DNA of 55,921 nucleotides, taken from the IMG/VR virus record IMGVR_UViG_2541047806_000003, positions 1-55,921 of that record. One strand, given 5' to 3'. Below, in pieces: positions 4,168 to 52,266 of the stretch. Within the stretch, counting starts at the first letter, position 1, and every line of letters begins with the position of its first letter. The notes beneath the pieces were generated by a model that saw only the letters and a program-made list of their open reading frames with translations, was not told the DNA's origin and searched no databases. The position numbers were made by a program, and so were the translations under genes. The DNA is from a virus. Taxonomy: Duplodnaviria > Heunggongvirae > Uroviricota > Caudoviricetes.

Positions 4168-7100
4168 ATGCTGTCGTTGATGTTCTAAATGATCCGGTGC
4201 CTCTTGCTACTATCATTGTTGGAGAATACAACGCGGTACAATATGCGTATCCTTCAGATGATGATGTTTGAGGACAATATATTTTCCCGATAATATCTGA
4301 TGCTTTTAAACCAGAAAAAGCGCATTGCACTGTTAATGTGCATCCACCATAAGGCACGTAATATGAAATTGTTTTGTTTTTATCTCCGCAACTAAACGTT
4401 ACGTTATAAGTGGATCTATATTCACCAGACATTAATGAAATAGTCGCCATAAGCATAACTGATTTCGTCAATGCATTATCCGTGCTGTCTTTATATGTGA
4501 TGGTTGCGCTATAACTTCCGTTATGCCCAAGCACTCGATCTGGACCAACCCCCATGTTAGCAACGTCACCGACAAATGACTTTGCCTCTACTGTACCTTT
4601 AAACTTCCCGCTTGTGGCCTGAATCTCACCAGTGAATTTACCAGATGTTGCGTACACCGTACCGCGTACAGTGACGTTGTTGAACTCCGCATTGCCGTTT
4701 TTATTTAGCATCCAGCCAGCCGAACCAGCTTTATAGTTGGTTGACTGAATTTGCTGCGCAATCTTCGCGGTAGTGATTGATGCGTCTCTGATCCACGCAT
4801 CACGGATGTAGCAAGCACCGTTAGTAACATAGAACGGGGTCTGATAGGAGCCACCTGCCGCAGTCATAAGCACGAAACGGTCAACGAGGAAAATACACTG
4901 CGATTGAACGTTAGTCCCGCTACCAGTAAGGCCGAGCGACATTCCTGTAGCGTATTTCATACCGTTTTTATCAGTGGCAATCTTAATTGAATATGACGCA
5001 TCAACGTTACCTTTGAAGTCAGTCAGTGCTTTTGATGTCGTTTCTATCGCCGTTGTGTTTCCGTTAATAGTTACTTTCAACTGGTCGATTCTGGTTGACA
5101 ATGCCTCGTCTGCCGTTGCCATAGCCTGTGACCATTCCGTGATGCTTGAGTTTACATCGTCGAAAGATGCCGAGATCTGGCCAAATTTTTCCGCGCTTGA
5201 TGTTTCATGCGTAGAAAGTGCAGTTGACACTTCGGATACTTTCGAATTAATCGTACTGGTAAGCGATGAGTTAAGGCTGCTGATTGCGTCAGTGCGTGCA
5301 TTCTTCTCATCTGCGATCGCTTTATCCATCCTGGTTACGTTGCTTGTCACCTTGCTATCGAGCGTGGAAATTGACGCATTAACCCCGCTAATAGCTTCTG
5401 CGCGTGCGCTCGCCTCATCTGCGATTGCTTTATCAAGACGGGAAACGCTCGCGTCGGTTTTGCTTTCAAGACTACTGACGCTGGCGTTAACGTTGCTAAT
5501 AGCTTCTGCGCGTGCGCTCGCCTCATCTGCGATTGCTGTGTCTACCCTTGCTATTTCCGCTTTTGTTTTTGTTTGTCCTTTCCTGTATTTCGCCTCAATA
5601 ACAGTGCTCATCTTGCTTTGCGCCATTGAGTTATTAATAAGCGCCAGAGATGCGTTTTGCAGACTTGCTTTCGCCTGATCTATCTCGTCGCTGTTTTTAT
5701 CAACCTCACTTTTAACGCCGCCAAGCGTCGCGCTGATACCTGATATCGCCTGAGCACGTGCGCTTGATTCATCAGCGATAGCTTGATCAAGACGGCTAAC
5801 ACTGGCATTTGTGTTATTTTCAAGCGTTGTTAAATCAGCTTTAACCACTGTTATTGCGTCGCTTCTTGCCTGCGTTTCATCTGATATTGCATTATCGAGG
5901 CGCTTAACGCTGGCGTCAGTTTTCTTGTCAAGTGTTGAGATACTTGCGTTCACGTCGCTGATAGCCTGAGTACGCGCACTTGTTTCGTCTGCAATTGCCT
6001 GATCAAGACGGTTTACGCTGGCGTCAGTTTTCTTGTCAAGATTGCTTATTGAGGCATTTACACCGTTAATAGCTTCAGCGCGGGCGCTGGCCTCGTCAGC
6101 TACTGCGCGTTGCACATTAGAGATCTGACCTTTAAGGTTTGTGTCCATCACATTCATTTCTGCCGTGATGGTTTCCAGTGATTCCGCTGTCGCTTTTTTC
6201 TCTTCAGCGATAACGTTGTCAATGCGGTCAATTTCCGCTTTCGTCTCTGTCCTGCCTTTCTTGTACTGAGCGGTAAGAGTTACGCGAGTGTTAGTCTGTG
6301 CAAGCGAGTTATTAATAAGAGCAAGTGAGGCGTTTTGCAGACTTGCTTTTGCTTGCGCCAGTTCGCTGCCAACTTTTTCGCTAGACACCTCCAGCGAGTC
6401 GATTCTCGACTCATGCTGTCCAATATCATCGGCGTTTTCCTTAACTTTTTTATAAAGATCTTCCGTTTCTTTTTTGAGCGTATCAGTATCAGCTTTTATT
6501 GATCCTGTTTCTATGGTTAGGTTGTCAGTTTCAGTCCTTAAATCGTCAGTTATGTTGGTCAGATTATCAGTTGCAGTTTTGAGGTTGTCAGTAGCAGTTT
6601 TAAGGTCATTCGTAGCGCTTTCGATAAGATCAGTGCGGTCGCCTAGATCTTTAATGTCACCAACCATTTCTTTAAATTGTTTGGAATTCATTACGTCTTT
6701 GGTGACGTAATCGGTAATTTCATCAAAGTTTTCTGTTGGCTTACCTGACGCTTCCACAAAGTCAGACACACCAAAAGCGTTACGCGCGCGCACATAAACG
6801 TAATATGTGTGACCTGTATTCATGCCGCCAAACGTCCACTGATGACCACGCCCAGTATATTGTGCTTTAGTGGTTATTGATGCCGGATCAGTGATCTGCG
6901 TTTCACCTGAGTAATAAAACTCGTAACTGGTATCAGTGGTGAGCGTTGTTCTGCTGATCGGGTAAACTGTAGCCTGGAATACACCGGGAACCCAATTAAC
7001 GCCAACTGGGGCCGCTGGTGCGCCAATAACCAGATCGACAATGCTTTCCGCACCCTTCATGCCCGTGTCATTTCTGCCACGAATGCCTAATGAGTAGTTG

Positions 7101-46041: not shown

Positions 46042-46689
46042 TTATGGCAGGTTTACGATCTTCGCATCAACCACCACGCCTATAATTTTTGATTCTGGAT
46101 TCATAGGGATTGGCGGATACAGCGGATTGAGCGAACGTAAAAGCCTTTGACCTCCATCAATAATCAACTGTTTAAACGTCGGTATCTGCCCTTCCTCAAG
46201 CTGGGCTATAACCAGTTTGCCGTCAATAGCTGGCGCGTGCGGGTCCACAAGTATCATCGTCCCCGCCGGGATGCTCAACCCCTGCGGCGCGTTCATTGAT
46301 TCACCTTTGGCAACCAGCCAGTAACTGTCATCTGAACAAATAACGCTAGTCGTAACGTGTCGTAATGCTGAACGCCTTGCGTCATCCATATTGTTTACTG
46401 TGTCCTTCCAGTCAATAACCGGGTAACTACCTAAATCACGCGGCGGCACGGCCTGAAGTGTATTAGAAACAGAATCATCAATGACCATACCATCATGTGT
46501 AACAGTGAACTGCCGACGACCAAGCTCTCGCATAATCCGCGCAATATCTTCAAGATTTGGCTCGCGGCGACCGTTCAGCCAGTGTGACAGGCCGCCTTTA
46601 GTTATCCCCATGCGATCCGCTAGTGAATCCTGGCTCATGCCCTGCGCCCGCATGAGCTGCTTTGCTAAGTCATACCATTTTGTTTTCAT
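46042..46689 (-). CDS. CI-type prophage repressor (HTH plus S24/LexA-like peptidase)
   Basis: 215 aa; N-terminal HTH (QDSLADRMGITKGGLSHW), C-terminal S24 Ser-Lys region (AKGESMN ... IIGVVVDAK). Confidence 0.85.
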   Translation of the reverse strand: MKTKWYDLAKQLMRAQGMSQDSLADRMGITKGGLSHWLNGRREPNLEDIARIMRELGRRQFTVTHDGMVIDDSVSNTLQAVPPRDLGSYPVIDWKDTVNNMDDARRSALRHVTTSVICSDDSYWLVAKGESMNAPQGLSIPAGTMILVDPHAPAIDGKLVIAQLEEGQIPTFKQLIIDGGQRLLRSLNPLYPPIPMNPESKIIGVVVDAKIVNLP

Positions 46690-46994
46690 GTCGCTACCCT
46701 ATAACCTCAAAAAGTTTGATGCAAGTCACAAAACGTGTATTTTAAGCCTTGATCTTAAAATTCCATTTTGTAAACTTGCAGACAAGGTAAGGCCATACTT
46801 GCAAAGACGCAAGGAAAAAGATAACGGAAGGCACAAAAAGGCACTTACCTTAAGCTCTTTAAAAATCCGGTGTCGCTGCGAAGCGAAAAACAAATATCAC
46901 GCAACGGCGGGATCTGTTGAGCGGTCAGTCACTGCTATCTAATGCTAATGGGATGCCCGCCCGCGCGTTCACTCTAACCATAGGAGAAAACACG
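46690..46994. promoter_or_regulatory. Divergent repressor/early promoter-operator region
   Basis: Intergenic; inverted repeats CTTGC-N6-GCAAG (ACTTGCAAAGACGCAAGG) and CTTGCAGACAAG; CCATTTTGTA motif at 46763. Confidence 0.4.
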
Positions 46995-47252
46995 ATGAGT
47001 ATGCACATGATGAATGAAGTATGGAACGTAAAACTTAACAGCCCGATTCAAAAACTTGTCTTAATGGCTCTGGCTGAAAAGGCAGATAACAAAGGACGGG
47101 TACATGATGCATCACGCAAAGAAGTAGCCGCAATGTGTGAACTTCCTGTTCATACGGTACATGATGCCTTCGCCGCGTTAATGGATAAAGGATTTGTTTG
47201 TCGTCTTGATGCATTCAGTGATGTCTATGTAGTGATGTTGCCGGAGGGATGA
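46995..47252 (+). CDS. Winged-helix DNA-binding protein at Cro/CII position
   Basis: 85 aa from ATG 46995 (SD AGGAG); KLVLMALAEKADNKGRVHDASRKEVAAMCELPVHTV resembles HTH of replication-initiator-type proteins. Confidence 0.45.
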   Translation: MSMHMMNEVWNVKLNSPIQKLVLMALAEKADNKGRVHDASRKEVAAMCELPVHTVHDAFAALMDKGFVCRLDAFSDVYVVMLPEG

Positions 47253-47255
47253 TCT

Positions 47256-48308
47256 ATGAAGTGGTTTAAGCATGACAGCGATGCGAACCGCGATGAAAAA
47301 CTTCAAAACGTTTTGTTAGATTATGGCCTGGAAGGGTACGGGCTTTATTGGTATTGCCTAGAACTAATAACTTATGACGTAGATCAGCACAATCTAACTT
47401 TTGACCTACGACATGACGCAAGAATAATTGCGCGAAACGTCGGATCTACTGAAAAACGTATAGAAGAAATGATGAAATACTTCATCGAAATTGGTTTGTT
47501 TGAATGTTCTCAAGGCCACATAACTTGTTTAAAGTTATTGAAAAGGCTGGACCAATCAATGACTTCTAAAAGCGCTTACAGGGCCGCCATAAACACAGCG
47601 AAGGAGCAATTAAAATTAGAAAAGTTAATCAATCCAACACAAAAAGGTCATGATAGGGTCATGACCGGGTCAGGAAAGGGTCATGAATTAGAATTAGAAG
47701 TAGAAAAAGAAAGAGAAAAAGATATATACACTTCGTGTATTGTCGAAAATGAACAAAAAATGGTCAATCAGGATGGCGTAAACGAAGCGGCATTGCGTTG
47801 CCTTGCCTTCTACAACGACAAGGCAGGATGCAAATGTCGTGATGCTAAGCCATTCGTAGAACTACTGACAGAAACAAAAACACGTAAAGCGTATACGGAG
47901 AATGAGATCACGTTAGTAATTGAGTGGGCTTTAACCCAATGGCGTAGCCGTGGTGGAGTACCTAAGCCTATCAACATTTGCCGGGTAACTAAGTTTGATG
48001 GGTATTTGGCTGATGCTGAACAATGGCGCAAGCTATCAGTTACTGTAAACGCTGCCGACGTGGTGGAAGCATTTAACAGCACGTTTGACGGCCTGTTACC
48101 ACCTGCCGAACTGGATCGGGATCTTGAACGCAAGATCTATGCGTTCACTGACTACCTGAAAGACAAAAGCATTAACGGCTTTGTCGCCTACTTCGAAACG
48201 TTCAAAAACACGGCTTCAGATTTTTACTTCGGCAATGGCTTCACTGCGACACTTGATTTCCTGCTTAAACCAAAAACGCTACGTGATACTCGCGCGGGCG
48301 CTCTTTGA
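47256..48308 (+). CDS. Replication initiation / replisome organiser protein (DnaD-like N-terminal domain)
   Basis: 350 aa; N-terminus MKWFKHDSDANRDEKLQNVLLDYGLEGYGLYWYCLELI matches phage replisome-organiser pattern. Confidence 0.7.
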   Translation: MKWFKHDSDANRDEKLQNVLLDYGLEGYGLYWYCLELITYDVDQHNLTFDLRHDARIIARNVGSTEKRIEEMMKYFIEIGLFECSQGHITCLKLLKRLDQSMTSKSAYRAAINTAKEQLKLEKLINPTQKGHDRVMTGSGKGHELELEVEKEREKDIYTSCIVENEQKMVNQDGVNEAALRCLAFYNDKAGCKCRDAKPFVELLTETKTRKAYTENEITLVIEWALTQWRSRGGVPKPINICRVTKFDGYLADAEQWRKLSVTVNAADVVEAFNSTFDGLLPPAELDRDLERKIYAFTDYLKDKSINGFVAYFETFKNTASDFYFGNGFTATLDFLLKPKTLRDTRAGAL

Positions 48309-48441
48309 CCAACAACGATCCGCAAAAATCCAAAATTACCCACAAAACAATCTCACCAGCGAGCTAAATCGCATTGGGTGCTACACTTGCTTACCTTTTT
48401 GCGATTAGCTCGTCAGAGAACTATTCAGAGAGGATTTTAAA

Positions 48442-48543
48442 ATGGACGGTAAACGCATGTTCGCCCTGGCTTTTGCCATCGCTGCGGCTATCGCAGTTAA
48501 CGTCGCCTTGTTCGGCGGTTTGTTCCTTCTAGTCAATCCATAA
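48442..48543 (+). CDS. Small hydrophobic peptide MDGKRMFALAFAIAAAIAVNVALFGGLFLLVNP
   Basis: 33 aa, SD GAGG. Confidence 0.3.
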   Translation: MDGKRMFALAFAIAAAIAVNVALFGGLFLLVNP

Positions 48544-48683
48544 CCTACCTACCAGTCTGTAAATCGAAAATTAGCCACCTGATAGCGCCTCTGACGCAAT
48601 AAGACACTGCAACCTGTGCAAATGGGTTACGCGGTGGAATTTTGCGTTGTAGCGCGTCTGAGGTGTTTTAAGGAGTTGGATCG

Positions 48684-49595
48684 ATGTGTAAGTTAACACA
48701 TGAGGAACATGTTGCCGCTATTGCGAAAGTTAATCCTGATGTTGAAGTGCTGGGGAAAATTATTAATAGCAAAACAAAAGTATTATGCCGCTGCAGAGTT
48801 TGCGATCATGAGTGGTCGCCTAGACCTACCGACCTAAAATACGGGAAAGGCTGCCCGAAATGTTCTGGTCACACAAAGTTGTCGCATGAAGAACATGTTA
48901 AGGCTATTGCGAAAGTTAATCCTGATGTTGAAGTGCTGGGAGAAATAACGAACGTCGATATAAAAGTATTATGCCGCTGCAAAGTTTGTAATCATGAGTG
49001 GTTGCCGCGGCCTAGCTTTCTTAAACGGGGGAGTGGCTGCCCGAAATGTCGCGGTGGTAGTGATAGACTGTCACACGAGGAACAAGTCACGGATATTGCT
49101 AAGGTTAATCATGATATTGAAGTACTAGGGAGAATTACAGGCAGCCTGAAAAAAGTATTGTGCCGCTGCAAAGTTTGTGGCCATAAAAGGATGTGTACAC
49201 CCCACAACCTTAAGCGCGGCGACGGCTGTCCAAAATGCGCAAAATACGGCTTTCTTCGTCATGAGCGCGGTAAACTTTACATCATGACTGACGATCTGGA
49301 AGTGCCTACACAAATGAAAATTGGTGTAAGCGTTAAGGAGAACGAGCGAAGAAATGAAATATTAAAAAGCGCACATAAAGCAGGTGTTAGAATTCCTGAT
49401 TTGCATATCGTGAAAACGTTAGAAGGGCCAACTGAAAATATCCATGAATTAGAAAGCACGATGCATAAGGCTTTTAGCAATTATAAAATTAACTTCCCTG
49501 TAAAATTTGATGGTAGTAATGAGTTTTTCTATTACAGGCCGGAAGTATTCGACATGGTAGAAGAAGCATATAAAGAGATTGTTTGCTGTCAATGA
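48684..49595 (+). CDS. T5orf172/GIY-YIG-like domain protein with three N-terminal zinc-ribbon repeats (possible free-standing homing endonuclease)
   Basis: 303 aa; three repeats of about 62 aa each with CRCxVC...GCPKC; C-terminal GKLYIMTDD...KIGVS...GSNEFF. Confidence 0.5.
   Translation: MCKLTHEEHVAAIAKVNPDVEVLGKIINSKTKVLCRCRVCDHEWSPRPTDLKYGKGCPKCSGHTKLSHEEHVKAIAKVNPDVEVLGEITNVDIKVLCRCKVCNHEWLPRPSFLKRGSGCPKCRGGSDRLSHEEQVTDIAKVNHDIEVLGRITGSLKKVLCRCKVCGHKRMCTPHNLKRGDGCPKCAKYGFLRHERGKLYIMTDDLEVPTQMKIGVSVKENERRNEILKSAHKAGVRIPDLHIVKTLEGPTENIHELESTMHKAFSNYKINFPVKFDGSNEFFYYRPEVFDMVEEAYKEIVCCQ
48693..49253. repeat. Three tandem repeats of about 186 bp inside ORF 48684-49595
   Basis: Near-identical stretches such as GCTATTGCGAAAGTTAATCCTGATGTTGAAGTGCTGGG and GTATTATGCCGCTGCA-AGTTTG recur. 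Confidence 0.6.
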
Positions 49596-49628
49596 ATATA
49601 CAAAATGTATACCGGAGGATATAACATT

Positions 49629-50747
49629 ATGTGTCAAAGAAAGATTAGTGATGAACAGCTAATCACTGAACATAACAACGGTCTAACGTATAAACAGATC
49701 GCCGAAAAGTACGGAATGGCAAAACGCAACGTCGAACGGCTGGGCGCACGGTTGGCGAAACGCGGTTTAATATCCACGCGCCGCGCTCCTGGTTTTGGCG
49801 TCAATGCTGAGTCATTGCTCGTCGATAAGGATGGCAATGTGATTATGCGCTGGATTAAAACAGCCCGTGACCGCGATGAAATGGAAATGCTAATGCAATC
49901 GGCTTGTGATGCTTTCACGGAAGAGATACCACGCGCGGAGGCCGTGCCAGTGCCGGAAATTGATTTTCAAAAAAGCCTGGCCCTTTATCCGGTATTCGAT
50001 CTGCATATCGGGGCGCTTGCTCATAAAGCTGAATGCGGTGAGAGCTACGACACCGGGATCGCTGAACGCGTGCTAAATGACTTCTTCGACTACGCGGTAG
50101 GCGCTGCGCCAATGTCTGAAAAGGCTGTTTTGCTTCTCGGCGGTGATGTGCTTCACACTGACGGCCTGTTACCAGTGACGCCATCAAGTAATCACGTTTT
50201 AGATTGTGATTCACGCTACGCAAAACTGGTTTATGTGGCGATCCGGTCGGTCCGGCGTGCGGTCGGGAAGATGTTACTAAATCATAAGGATGTCGAGATC
50301 CAGGTATTATCCGGTAATCACGACCAATCAGGTATGATTTGGCTACGTGCTGCGCTGGCGGCTTTTTACGAAGATGAACCGCGTGTGACGGTTGATGTGT
50401 CACCTGCTATCGTCCATCACACACAGTACGGCAAAACATTTCTTGCTTACCACCACGGGCACACTATCAAAAAGCCAGAAAATTTACTTTCTGCCTGCGT
50501 TTCTGACTGGCGGGAGGATTTCGGCAAGTCGTCGTCTGTTTACGCTCATTGTGGACACTGGCATCACCAACGGCTGATTGAATCATCGTTGGGCGTTGTT
50601 GAGTACCACGGCACGTTAGCTGGCAAAGACGCTTATTCAACGAATGGCGGCTGGCGGTCGCGGCGGCTGGCTGCGGTAATAATTTACAGTCCTGATCATG
50701 GGGAAATCGGGCGCTTTGTTTATTACCCTGAATATTCCATTTTGTAA
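49629..50747 (+). CDS. HTH-containing calcineurin-like metallophosphoesterase
   Basis: 372 aa from ATG 49629 (SD GGAGGA); motifs DLHIG, GGDVLH, GNHD, HHGH, GHWHH; N-terminal HTH (LTYKQIAEKYGMAKRNVERL). Confidence 0.55.
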   Translation: MCQRKISDEQLITEHNNGLTYKQIAEKYGMAKRNVERLGARLAKRGLISTRRAPGFGVNAESLLVDKDGNVIMRWIKTARDRDEMEMLMQSACDAFTEEIPRAEAVPVPEIDFQKSLALYPVFDLHIGALAHKAECGESYDTGIAERVLNDFFDYAVGAAPMSEKAVLLLGGDVLHTDGLLPVTPSSNHVLDCDSRYAKLVYVAIRSVRRAVGKMLLNHKDVEIQVLSGNHDQSGMIWLRAALAAFYEDEPRVTVDVSPAIVHHTQYGKTFLAYHHGHTIKKPENLLSACVSDWREDFGKSSSVYAHCGHWHHQRLIESSLGVVEYHGTLAGKDAYSTNGGWRSRRLAAVIIYSPDHGEIGRFVYYPEYSIL

Positions 50748-50765
50748 ACCGGAGGCGATGCCATA

Positions 50766-52187
50766 ATGATAACCGAACAAGTAAACTCATTGCGGCAAGA
50801 AAGAGAATCAGCGGTTATCGGTGGCCTGCTGTTAGGTGGGCTTACTCCTAACGCGCAAGATGTTCTCGCTACGCTTGATCCTGAAGTGTTCACTATTCCG
50901 CTGTATAAGCGGGCTTTTGAAATTATCCGGGCGCAAGCCAGAAACAGAAATCTTATCGACGCCTTGCTGGTTGGTGATGAGATTGGCAACGAAAATTTTG
51001 TACCGCTGATGCAAACGGCGCGATCGTGTCCTTCTGCTGCCAATCTGAAAGGATATGCGCGACTACTACAGGAAGAACACCAGCGGCGGCAAATGCTGGA
51101 ACTAATGGAAGACATTCGCTACAAACTGGAAACGGGGACGCTTGAAGTCGTCAGGGAGACGATGAAAGATTTTGATTCCCGGTATTCAAAATTAAAGGTA
51201 ACAAAAGATCAAATTATCCCGGTGCTGTTGCGCGATGCGGTCCAGGAATACACGGAAGTGTTAAGTAAACGCATGGAGTGTGGCGTGAACTCTGACAACA
51301 TCAAAACAGGGATTGACCCACTCGACGAAATGTTAGGCGGCATTAACGCTACTGATCTGGTGCTTATCGCCGGACGCCCAGGGTCTGGTAAATCGGCGTT
51401 GGCGTTGGCAATTGCCCGCGCGGCGGCTGAACGTCCATACCCTGGCGGCGAAGGTCAGCGGGTCGGCGTTTTGCTGTTCACGCTTGAAATGTCGCTCGAT
51501 CAGATGACTGAACGTGCTATCGCTGGCGCTGGGAACTTATCAACGGATTGCCTACGTAATCCGGTAAAACTGGATGACGAAGGTTGGGCGCACGTCGCCC
51601 AGGGAATGAGTGCCCTTGCCGATCTCGATGTGTGGATTGTTGACGCATCGCAGTTAACGGTTGAGGAAATACGCGCCACCGTCGAACGGATGAAACAGGA
51701 CCATCCTAATCTTGGAATGGTGATGATTGACTACATCGGTTTAATGAAACTGGCTAAGGCCGAACGTCATGATCTCGCCGTAGGGCAATTGTCGTGGTCA
51801 TTGAAAATGATGGCGAAAGAGTTGCGCGTGCCAGTGGCGGCACTGGCGCAATTATCCCGCCGCGTTGAGGAACGACCGAACAAGCGCCCGAACAATTCTG
51901 ATCTGCGTGATTCCGGTAATCTTGAACAGGACGCAGACCGGATCATCATGGTCTACCGCGACGGCTACTACAACGAACAATCGGTTGCCCGCGAATATAT
52001 GGAGATCATCGTTTCAAAAAACCGTCACGGGAAAACGGGGACTGTTTACCAGCGGTTTGACGATAACGGCAACATCATCCCATGCAACCAGGCCCGCGCG
52101 GCGTCCGCTTGCATTCAGTCAATGCAACAACGTCCGGCGGCAAGTCGATTCTCCCCACGAAACAGCCAGAGCAACGCATCTTTTTAA
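50766..52187 (+). CDS. Replicative DNA helicase (DnaB-like)
   Basis: 473 aa; Walker A GRPGSGKS, Walker B-like MVMIDYIG, C-terminal RecA-like fold motifs. Confidence 0.85.
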   Translation: MITEQVNSLRQERESAVIGGLLLGGLTPNAQDVLATLDPEVFTIPLYKRAFEIIRAQARNRNLIDALLVGDEIGNENFVPLMQTARSCPSAANLKGYARLLQEEHQRRQMLELMEDIRYKLETGTLEVVRETMKDFDSRYSKLKVTKDQIIPVLLRDAVQEYTEVLSKRMECGVNSDNIKTGIDPLDEMLGGINATDLVLIAGRPGSGKSALALAIARAAAERPYPGGEGQRVGVLLFTLEMSLDQMTERAIAGAGNLSTDCLRNPVKLDDEGWAHVAQGMSALADLDVWIVDASQLTVEEIRATVERMKQDHPNLGMVMIDYIGLMKLAKAERHDLAVGQLSWSLKMMAKELRVPVAALAQLSRRVEERPNKRPNNSDLRDSGNLEQDADRIIMVYRDGYYNEQSVAREYMEIIVSKNRHGKTGTVYQRFDDNGNIIPCNQARAASACIQSMQQRPAASRFSPRNSQSNASF

Positions 52188-52266
52188 TTAACTTGAGCAA
52201 ACGGCTTACCGGAAAGTTGACCGCTTTCTAGTGGCTGTTTTCGCGCTTAAAACGAGGCGAAAAACA

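Follow-up and report, generated by a model that had tools for sequence, protein, structure and literature searches.

A zinc-finger/T5orf172 nuclease gene, probably of homing-endonuclease type, in a hypervariable replication-module slot of an mEp021-like coliphage

What is a predicted nuclease gene with a row of zinc fingers doing among the replication genes of a temperate coliphage? The gene in question lies in a viral sequence of 55,921 nucleotides (IMG/VR record IMGVR_UViG_2541047806_000003, Caudoviricetes), which we refer to in its entirety as the window. By its sequence we assign the window to the mEp021-like ('mEpimmI') temperate coliphages or their prophages: across 46900-52200 its identity is 96% with phage MagusPhagus and 84-88% with mEp013, mEp515, mEp554, mEp044, mEp010 and mEp021. 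The original prediction for the gene, made from the sequence alone, was a T5orf172/GIY-YIG-like protein with three tandem zinc-ribbon repeats, inserted in the replication module as homing endonuclease genes often are. We favour, with a probability of roughly 0.6, the reading that it is a free-standing homing-endonuclease-type gene belonging, within the GIY-YIG superfamily, to the T5orf172 branch, and that its 933-bp cassette occupies a slot in the replication module. It would be an ordinary phage gene of the selfish type, predicted to encode a nuclease that three zinc fingers guide to its DNA.

Three zinc fingers and a T5orf172 domain in the predicted protein

The 303-aa product matches PHROG 681 'endonuclease' (E 3.7e-56), and its architecture is that of three CapR/DUF4379 zinc fingers, joined by flexible linkers, ahead of a domain of GIY-YIG fold (Table 1). 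The full-length AF2 model (pLDDT 85, pTM 0.44), in which low confidence is confined to the linkers, portrays the protein as independent beads on a string. When the C-terminal 120 aa were modelled alone (pLDDT 95, pTM 0.86), the domain was confidently predicted to adopt the GIY-YIG alpha/beta fold, with a three-stranded sheet flanked by helices. A Pfam HMM search scored T5orf172 (PF10544) at 25.5 bits over aa 198-289 (cut-off 20, E 1.9e-5), and MUG113, its sister family, also matched (23.2 against a cut-off of 22.3, E 1e-4); with the search and the modelled fold in agreement, the T5orf172/GIY-YIG-like identity first proposed for the gene is upheld. Only 27 representative clusters of the subfamily were matched in a single-sequence search of 1.84 billion proteins. 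A PDB profile search with the nuclease domain returned nothing significant, and an NCBIfam search of the protein yielded only spurious HypA zinc-knuckle matches under the cut-off.

Within the nuclease domain, Y199, K212, G214, R222, E257, H261, F275, G277, E280 and F282 show no variation among 30 diverse homologues. The domain aligns by hhalign (93.8% probability, E 1.7e-7) with the T5orf172 domain of Odn from vibriophage ICP1, such that Y199 is paired with Odn Y125, K212-I-G214 with K138-V-G140, R222 with R148, E257 with E180 and H261 with H184; the Y, K-x-G, R, E-x3-H and E elements of the two domains all correspond. Odn (ICP1 gp88) is an origin-directed T5orf172 nuclease that cleaves DNA in vitro, and its E180A substitution abolishes DNA cleavage both in vitro and in vivo (PMC8263062). 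Because E257 aligns with Odn E180, the catalytic core of the window protein is intact, and from the order of the secondary structure elements and the alignment in PMC8263062 we infer that they are equivalent to Y6/Y17/R27/E75 of I-TevI. E280, the glutamate of the NEFF motif, was rejected as the equivalent of I-TevI E75 and Odn E180, as hhalign sets Odn E180 opposite E257; E280 is a further invariant acid, perhaps at the position of I-TevI N90. Among 11 distinct alleles the pN/pS of the nuclease domain is 0.215, and the domain is therefore being maintained by purifying selection.

Each finger core spans 57 aa, and the linkers between them 5-8 aa. The fingers are recognised by two Pfam families, the DUF4379 'treble clef zinc finger' (PF14311; three stretches, E 1.1e-16, 61.1 bits against a cut-off of 24.5) and the CapR homology domain (PF21817; three stretches, E 1.4e-9, 38.5 bits against a cut-off of 24.2). 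The cysteine pattern C-x-C-x2-C-x16-C-x2-C, with four predicted zinc-ligand cysteines in each module, is invariant in all three window repeats and in 276 unique homologous repeats. The tandem zinc repeats of the original prediction are therefore real, as three fingers of the CapR/DUF4379 type, and the DNA repeat of about 186 bp reported for them coincides with the period found by Tandem Repeats Finder; 'near-identical', as they had been described, overstates their likeness, because they share only 59-75% pairwise identity in protein and 67-80% in DNA. At residue 169, in finger 3, the window allele has Arg in place of the Trp found in 283 of 287 homologous fingers, a change restricted to the window's lineage; as this Trp is nearly invariant, finger 3 of the window allele may be impaired, a point that weighs against the homing reading. 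With the finger as query, a PDB profile search got no further than a trypanosome DUF4379 protein at E 0.065, and the solved DUF4379 chains are exclusively trypanosome mitoribosome assembly factors.

Finger arrays homologous to that of the window protein are also fused to a Vsr-like PD-(D/E)xK nuclease domain, with no T5orf172 domain (proteins P0098 and P0107), and to an HNH domain (PHROG 559). That the same arrays are joined to other nuclease heads argues that the array is a DNA-targeting module for nucleases, and supports the view of a swappable module that serves at least three nuclease folds, T5orf172, Vsr-like and HNH. Proteins like that of the window are distributed sporadically: 591 phage records were matched by tblastn, and relatives at 46-56% identity were found in unrelated coliphages of ~140 kb. 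The model matched 261 viral proteins of BFVD (E <= 0.001), many of them already called 'treble clef zinc finger', 'T5 Orf172', 'CapR homology' or 'GIY-YIG nuclease', and close homologues carry the NCBI label 'GIY-YIG nuclease family protein'. Over 1601 bp the segment 48300-49900 shares 99.9% identity with prophages of five human E. coli isolates, in which the gene is annotated as a 'zinc-ribbon domain-containing protein'.

A hypervariable slot among the replication genes

The slot that the gene occupies lies between the replication initiator gene and the exonuclease-like gene preceding DnaB (Table 1). Its location had been given as between the initiator and helicase genes, which holds approximately; the gene is followed directly by the exonuclease-like gene and only then by DnaB. 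The exonuclease-like gene most likely starts at ATG 49629 (ATGTGTCAAAGAAAG) and not at the mechanically listed ATG 49605, since relatives and a GGAGG at about 49613-49617 point there, and this start leaves 33 bp between it and the stop of the nuclease gene. A promoter scan found no sigma-70-like promoter on the plus strand upstream of the zinc-finger/T5orf172 gene, and co-transcription with the replication operon is therefore likely.

Table 1. Positions of the zinc-finger/T5orf172 gene, its parts, its cassette and the neighbouring features in the window.
Feature	Position	Strand	Remarks
cI-like repressor	46042-46689	minus	
Small helix-turn-helix gene			between cI-like repressor and replication initiator
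Lin1244-type replication initiator	47256-48308		
Left divergent, co-conversion-like tract	48260..48657	.	~400 bp; 62 mismatches to MagusPhagus
Hydrophobic 33-codon ORF	48442-48543		just 5' of the zinc-finger/T5orf172 gene in gene order
Putative mobile cassette, 933 bp	48658..49590	+	BLAST and flank alignment against MagusPhagus, mEp010, STEC308
Shine-Dalgarno AAGGAG	48670..48675	+	within cassette, 8 nt 5' of ATG; read from sequence
Zinc-finger/T5orf172 nuclease ORF	48684..49595	+	303 aa plus stop; ORF list, Pfam, PHROG
Zinc finger 1, CapR/DUF4379 treble-clef type	48693..48863	+	aa 4-60; Pfam; AF2 pLDDT about 87-91
DNA tandem repeat	48697..49178	.	Tandem Repeats Finder: 186-bp period, 2.6 copies, 77% matches, score 501
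Zinc finger 2	48879..49049	+	aa 66-122; Pfam, repeat alignment, AF2
Zinc finger 3	49068..49238	+	aa 129-185; most divergent finger
T5orf172 (GIY-YIG superfamily) nuclease domain	49263..49586	+	aa 194-301
Right divergent, co-conversion-like tract	49591..49931	.	~340 bp; 28 mismatches to MagusPhagus
'DNA repair exonuclease'-like gene			directly downstream of the zinc-finger/T5orf172 gene; PHROG 704, E 8e-138
DnaB helicase	50766-52187		after exonuclease-like gene

Several further features of the neighbourhood were observed. Inside the replication initiator gene, four copies of a GGTCATGA-type iteron with 11-nt spacing (47646-47686) have A/T-rich repeats on both sides (AATTAAAATTAGAAAA, at 47608 and 47692); this cluster is probably the phage origin, arranged like the lambda ori inside gene O. 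All relatives have the short ORF upstream of the slot annotated as a hypothetical gene of 102 nt; it encodes a highly hydrophobic peptide (MDGKRMFALAFAIAAAIAVNVALFGGLFLLVNP) and falls within the left divergent tract. An inverted repeat, CGCAAAAATCCA (48321-48332) and TGGAATTTTGCG (48635-48646), whose arms are complementary at 11 of 12 positions, encloses a segment of ~330 bp that reaches from the initiator stop codon to the slot, and its right arm belongs to the left boundary conserved in all cassettes; a direct repeat, AAATC(C/G)AAAATTA(C/G)CCAC, occurs at 48326 and 48561. A second slot that is polymorphic for a nuclease gene separates the exonuclease-like gene from dnaB; it holds an HNH 'homing endonuclease' in mEp021, mEp515 and mEp010 (the HNH gene coordinates are 5529-6032 in locus L002, 4622-5176 in L004 and 3821-4411 in L007) and consists only of a spacer of ~18 bp in the window (50748-50765) and in MagusPhagus.

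The boundaries of the cassette are given by its gene-free relatives MagusPhagus, mEp010 and the STEC308 prophage: homology to these ends at 48657 and restarts at 49591, and 9 bp (TTTACGGAA) stand in place of the cassette. The GC content of the cassette is 42.0%, and that of its T5orf172 part 36.8%, against 45.9% for the window as a whole. Using the downstream exonuclease protein as query we fetched 80 IMG/VR loci and classified 51 that were mEp021-like, the window included; these are not all independent, several being near-identical. Nine of the 51 slots are empty, 20 contain the zinc-finger/T5orf172 gene and 22 contain unrelated cassettes, all with the same junctions, and the proposal that the gene is an insertion is accordingly supported by its absence from some relatives and by the existence of empty-site alleles. 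Among 5,426 complete E. coli genomes the locus was present in 35, 12 of which have the zinc-finger gene.

The unrelated cassettes (loci with other cassettes include L004, L005, L006, L024, L025, L029, L031, L042 and L048) encode Bro-N+KilAC, Rha+KilAC or Rha-only proteins, a 351-aa protein with a DUF559/Vsr-like nuclease tail, or a Bro-N protein whose C-terminal part is, by eye, like the nuclease-like tail of the 351-aa protein; in mEp044 the slot holds two genes, one of them a Bro-N protein with a tail of this kind. The slot boundaries of these unrelated cassettes are identical (left …TTGTAGCGCGT, right TATACA…TGTAAAC). In ICP1, likewise, the T5orf172 nuclease Odn adjoins a Bro-N/ANT gene (L092 8687-9415). 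MLI107-type E. coli alleles (L009 2806-2983, L022 and L035) have ~165 extra bp after the stop of the nuclease gene, before the downstream gene, and then a right junction of 'empty-site-like' form (ATACTCATTC), which suggests that they used a different right-hand recombination point.

The difference between the window and MagusPhagus is a 1.67-kb patch centred on the cassette and made up of the cassette and the divergent tracts on either side (Table 1). Outside it the two sequences are about 100% identical on the left (6 mismatches in 960 bp, 47300-48260) and show 1 mismatch in ~1.7 kb on the right (49932-51660). Such a patch looks like the product of co-conversion during homing, and it also fits ordinary recombination through conserved flanks, an alternative that the shared slot boundaries of unrelated cassettes leave standing. 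If the gene does home, its protein would be produced from the early (replication) transcript; the array of fingers would recognise an asymmetric DNA site, by analogy with the single CapR finger (PMC8096241), and the tethered T5orf172 domain would cut nearby through Tyr/Arg/Glu-metal GIY-YIG chemistry, by analogy with Odn (PMC8263062). With a cassette-free related phage or prophage in the same cell, the break would be repaired from the cassette-bearing genome, and this repair would copy the gene together with a few hundred bp of flank.

Flank-mediated recombination alone could explain both the polymorphism and the divergent tracts, because unrelated cassettes share the slot and its boundaries. 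The gene would then be a passive accessory cassette ('moron') that is moved only by homologous recombination at the conserved slot boundaries, with the nuclease irrelevant to its spread. The use of identical left and right boundaries by unrelated cassettes favours this explanation, as does the fate of a gene-specific flank signature. In 12 loci, a SNP 6 nt 5' of the downstream ATG and a block, ATACAAAATGT versus ATACATTCTGT, separated gene-bearing from gene-free alleles; as a homing-site signature they failed at 51 loci, where the 'gene-bearing' flank variants were also found with other cassettes and at one empty site. None of the flank polymorphisms among the 51 loci split gene-bearing from gene-free alleles, and no target or cleavage site was identified; the best flank candidate, ATACAAAATGT versus ATACATT(C/T)TGT at 49602-49605, showed a frequency difference of 0.77-0.81. 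A left-flank block at 48600-48618 was rejected as a signature, being merely one of two haplotypes and common to Bro cassettes. The original idea that comparison with gene-free relatives would define a homing site was thus realised in part, with an exact empty site found and no homing-site signature that held at 51 loci. A passive cassette, however, leaves unexplained both the near-constant coupling of finger arrays to nuclease domains of three folds and the wide, sporadic spread in unrelated phages, and we regard it as quite improbable.

Variation in finger number and finger residues

Among the 20 gene-bearing loci, four alleles have one finger, one has two, fourteen have three and one, that of mEp021, has six; in the best 120 protein matches there are two fingers in 21, three in 50, four in 39, five in 6 and six in 3. 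Relatives of the window illustrate how these numbers arise. The IMG/VR locus L012, whose flanks are 100% identical to those of the window, encodes a single finger that is composed of the N-terminal half of window finger 1 and the C-terminal half of finger 3 (…CRCRVC joined to GHKRMCTPHN…). Two further alleles, L037 with two fingers and L027 with one, derive from the L010/L038 allele and have chimeric fingers, and L021 is a one-finger derivative of the M1/5 allele. In mEp021, fingers 5 and 6 have 94% DNA identity, which indicates a recent duplication. Finger number evidently changes by unequal recombination between the repeats, since relatives carry chimeric fingers; these chimeras, and the 1-, 2-, 3- and 6-finger alleles among the relatives, vindicate the description of the repeats as recombination-prone.

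Eighteen of the 20 alleles are intact and the other two are frameshifted just after the NEFF motif. These frameshifts are independent, a +1 change in a T5 run in L012 (2954-3469) and a -1 change beside it in L021 (2949-3449), and they replace or remove the last helix of the nuclease domain. Both are one-finger alleles from one metagenome collection, and their frameshifts may reflect gene decay or sequencing errors; decayed alleles are as expected in the life cycle of a homing gene.

Across the 276 unique homologous fingers, variation is concentrated at 12 of the 57 positions (24, 26-28, 38, 42-44, 46-47, 50 and 52), which surround the first zinc knuckle and the short helix preceding the second knuckle, and the positions outside these 12 are nearly fixed. 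The finger scaffold is under purifying selection, with a pN/pS of 0.19 at scaffold codons versus about 0.97 at the 12 variable codons, a contrast that is inflated because the 12 positions were picked for varying. A claim of positive selection on the variable positions was dropped for the same reason, the value of ~0.97 resting on positions so chosen. Alleles at one and the same slot differ in the residues at these putative specificity positions. Together with the presence of 1-6 fingers at one site, this is awkward for the homing reading if the fingers define a single homing site.

These differences in finger residues and finger number at a single site therefore give weight to a rival modelled on Odn, in which the gene is a domesticated conflict nuclease whose fingers direct the T5orf172 domain at foreign DNA (competing phages, resident prophages or satellites), as Odn is directed against PLE. 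An arms race would then drive the evolution of the hypervariable fingers, and the gene would persist through its benefit to the phage and not through homing. Consistent with such a role are the pN/pS values of the variable and scaffold positions, the divergence of variable residues between alleles at the same site, the reshuffling of finger number within lineages, the purifying selection on a nuclease domain that is intact in 18 of 20 alleles, the precedent of Odn itself (PMC8263062) and of Odn-like genes in coliphages (PMC10448857), and the accessory, regulator-type nature of the other slot occupants. The first of these arguments is, however, weakened by the choice of variable positions after looking at the data. 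The PADLOC defence library gave a single weak match (E 1.2e-4, candidate family PDC-S57), which amounts to no meaningful defence-library support, and the presence/absence pattern with its flanking tracts and the decayed alleles suit a selfish element equally well or better. On balance we consider a domesticated nuclease possible, if rather unlikely.

Also tentative, and in our view doubtful, is the idea that the tandem fingers form a modular, rapidly re-programmable DNA-recognition array, with ~12 specificity positions per 57-aa finger and a length reset between 1 and 6 by unequal recombination, that serves mainly in inter-phage or phage-satellite warfare and less in homing to a single site. 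If true, it would explain the completely different finger 'codes' among alleles at one locus.

A protein with fingers need not cut at all, and the gene could instead encode a DNA-binding regulator with little or no cleavage activity, CapR-like or I-TevI-autorepressor-like, whose fingers at a promoter or origin would tune early or replication genes. CapR, a derivative made up of the finger alone, represses a promoter (PMC8096241), the other occupants of the slot include Bro-N/Rha-KilAC 'antirepressor'-type proteins, and the gene lies next to an initiator gene with probable origin iterons. Pure binding would not, however, need the full nuclease core, which is invariant and under purifying selection, and nine relatives manage without the gene; we hold a purely regulatory role to be improbable.

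Comparison with known T5orf172 and zinc-finger systems

T5orf172 nucleases with repeated CapR-type fingers and repeat recombination have been known since 2023, and the window gene is not new in kind. Putative homing endonucleases of the T5orf172 type were described in vibriophage ICP1 and other phages by Barth, Dunham & Seed 2023 (PMC10448857), in whose data 87% of them carry at least one finger of the CapR/DUF723/DUF4379 type ('class V repeat proteins, beads on a string'). Degenerate intragenic DNA repeats, domain swapping and frameshifted alleles are reported there, along with gp174*, an in-frame deletion through repeat recombination, and Odn-like RepA_N-T5orf172 genes are recorded in coliphages. 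Because that work described both the architecture and the repeat dynamics, the window gene adds to a known class. Its authors state that homing by T5orf172 genes still awaits experimental verification, a search of the T5orf172 literature from 2024 onward gave nothing on homing, and in the paper describing the mEp phages the words zinc, homing and HNH are absent.

The interest of the locus is chiefly practical. Phages that can be cultivated on E. coli K-12 carry the gene, and nature supplies near-isogenic gene-free partners (mEp010 and MagusPhagus) as well as versions that differ in finger number (1 in mEp013, 3 in the window's lineage and 6 in mEp021). Homing, the position of the cut, and how finger number and the variable positions set specificity are thereby opened to test in a standard host.

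The closest counterparts in architecture are the putative homing endonucleases of ICP1 and other phages (gp174, gp165, gp121, gp53 and gp130), which, like the window protein, combine one or more CapR/DUF723/DUF4379 fingers with a T5orf172 domain at one end. The ICP1-type genes and the window gene have in common variable presence between related phages, intragenic DNA repeats, frameshifted alleles and in-frame deletion by repeat recombination (gp174* in ICP1). They differ in setting, the ICP1-type examples belonging to lytic phages and the window gene to the replication module of a temperate coliphage or prophage, and direct similarity of the window protein to ICP1 gp122 is negligible (BLASTP E 0.035). 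What the window locus offers beyond the ICP1-type examples is a complete natural set of alleles with 1, 2, 3 or 6 fingers, together with two near-isogenic genomes of which only one has the gene.

No T5orf172 protein other than Odn has been shown to cleave DNA in a sequence-directed manner. Odn finds its target through a RepA_N domain copied from its satellite, where the window protein has zinc fingers instead, and it is a domesticated anti-satellite weapon and not a mobile gene. The finger module of CapR (PF21817), a protein of the PLE satellite, is homologous to the window fingers. CapR binds a promoter sequence-specifically in EMSA, and Cys-to-Ser changes of four cysteines abolish the binding (PMC8096241). 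It is a transcriptional repressor built on one finger module, and no nuclease role has been reported for it, whereas the window protein has three fingers and an intact T5orf172 core. With respect to the classical GIY-YIG enzymes, the nuclease domain is N-terminal in I-TevI and C-terminal in the window protein, and the window protein has a lysine (K212), the T5orf172 signature, in place of the 'YIG' tyrosine. Finally, I-TevI and the Seg and Mob enzymes of T4 bind DNA through helix-turn-helix or IENR/NUMOD elements, whereas the window protein is predicted to do so through its tandem zinc-finger array.
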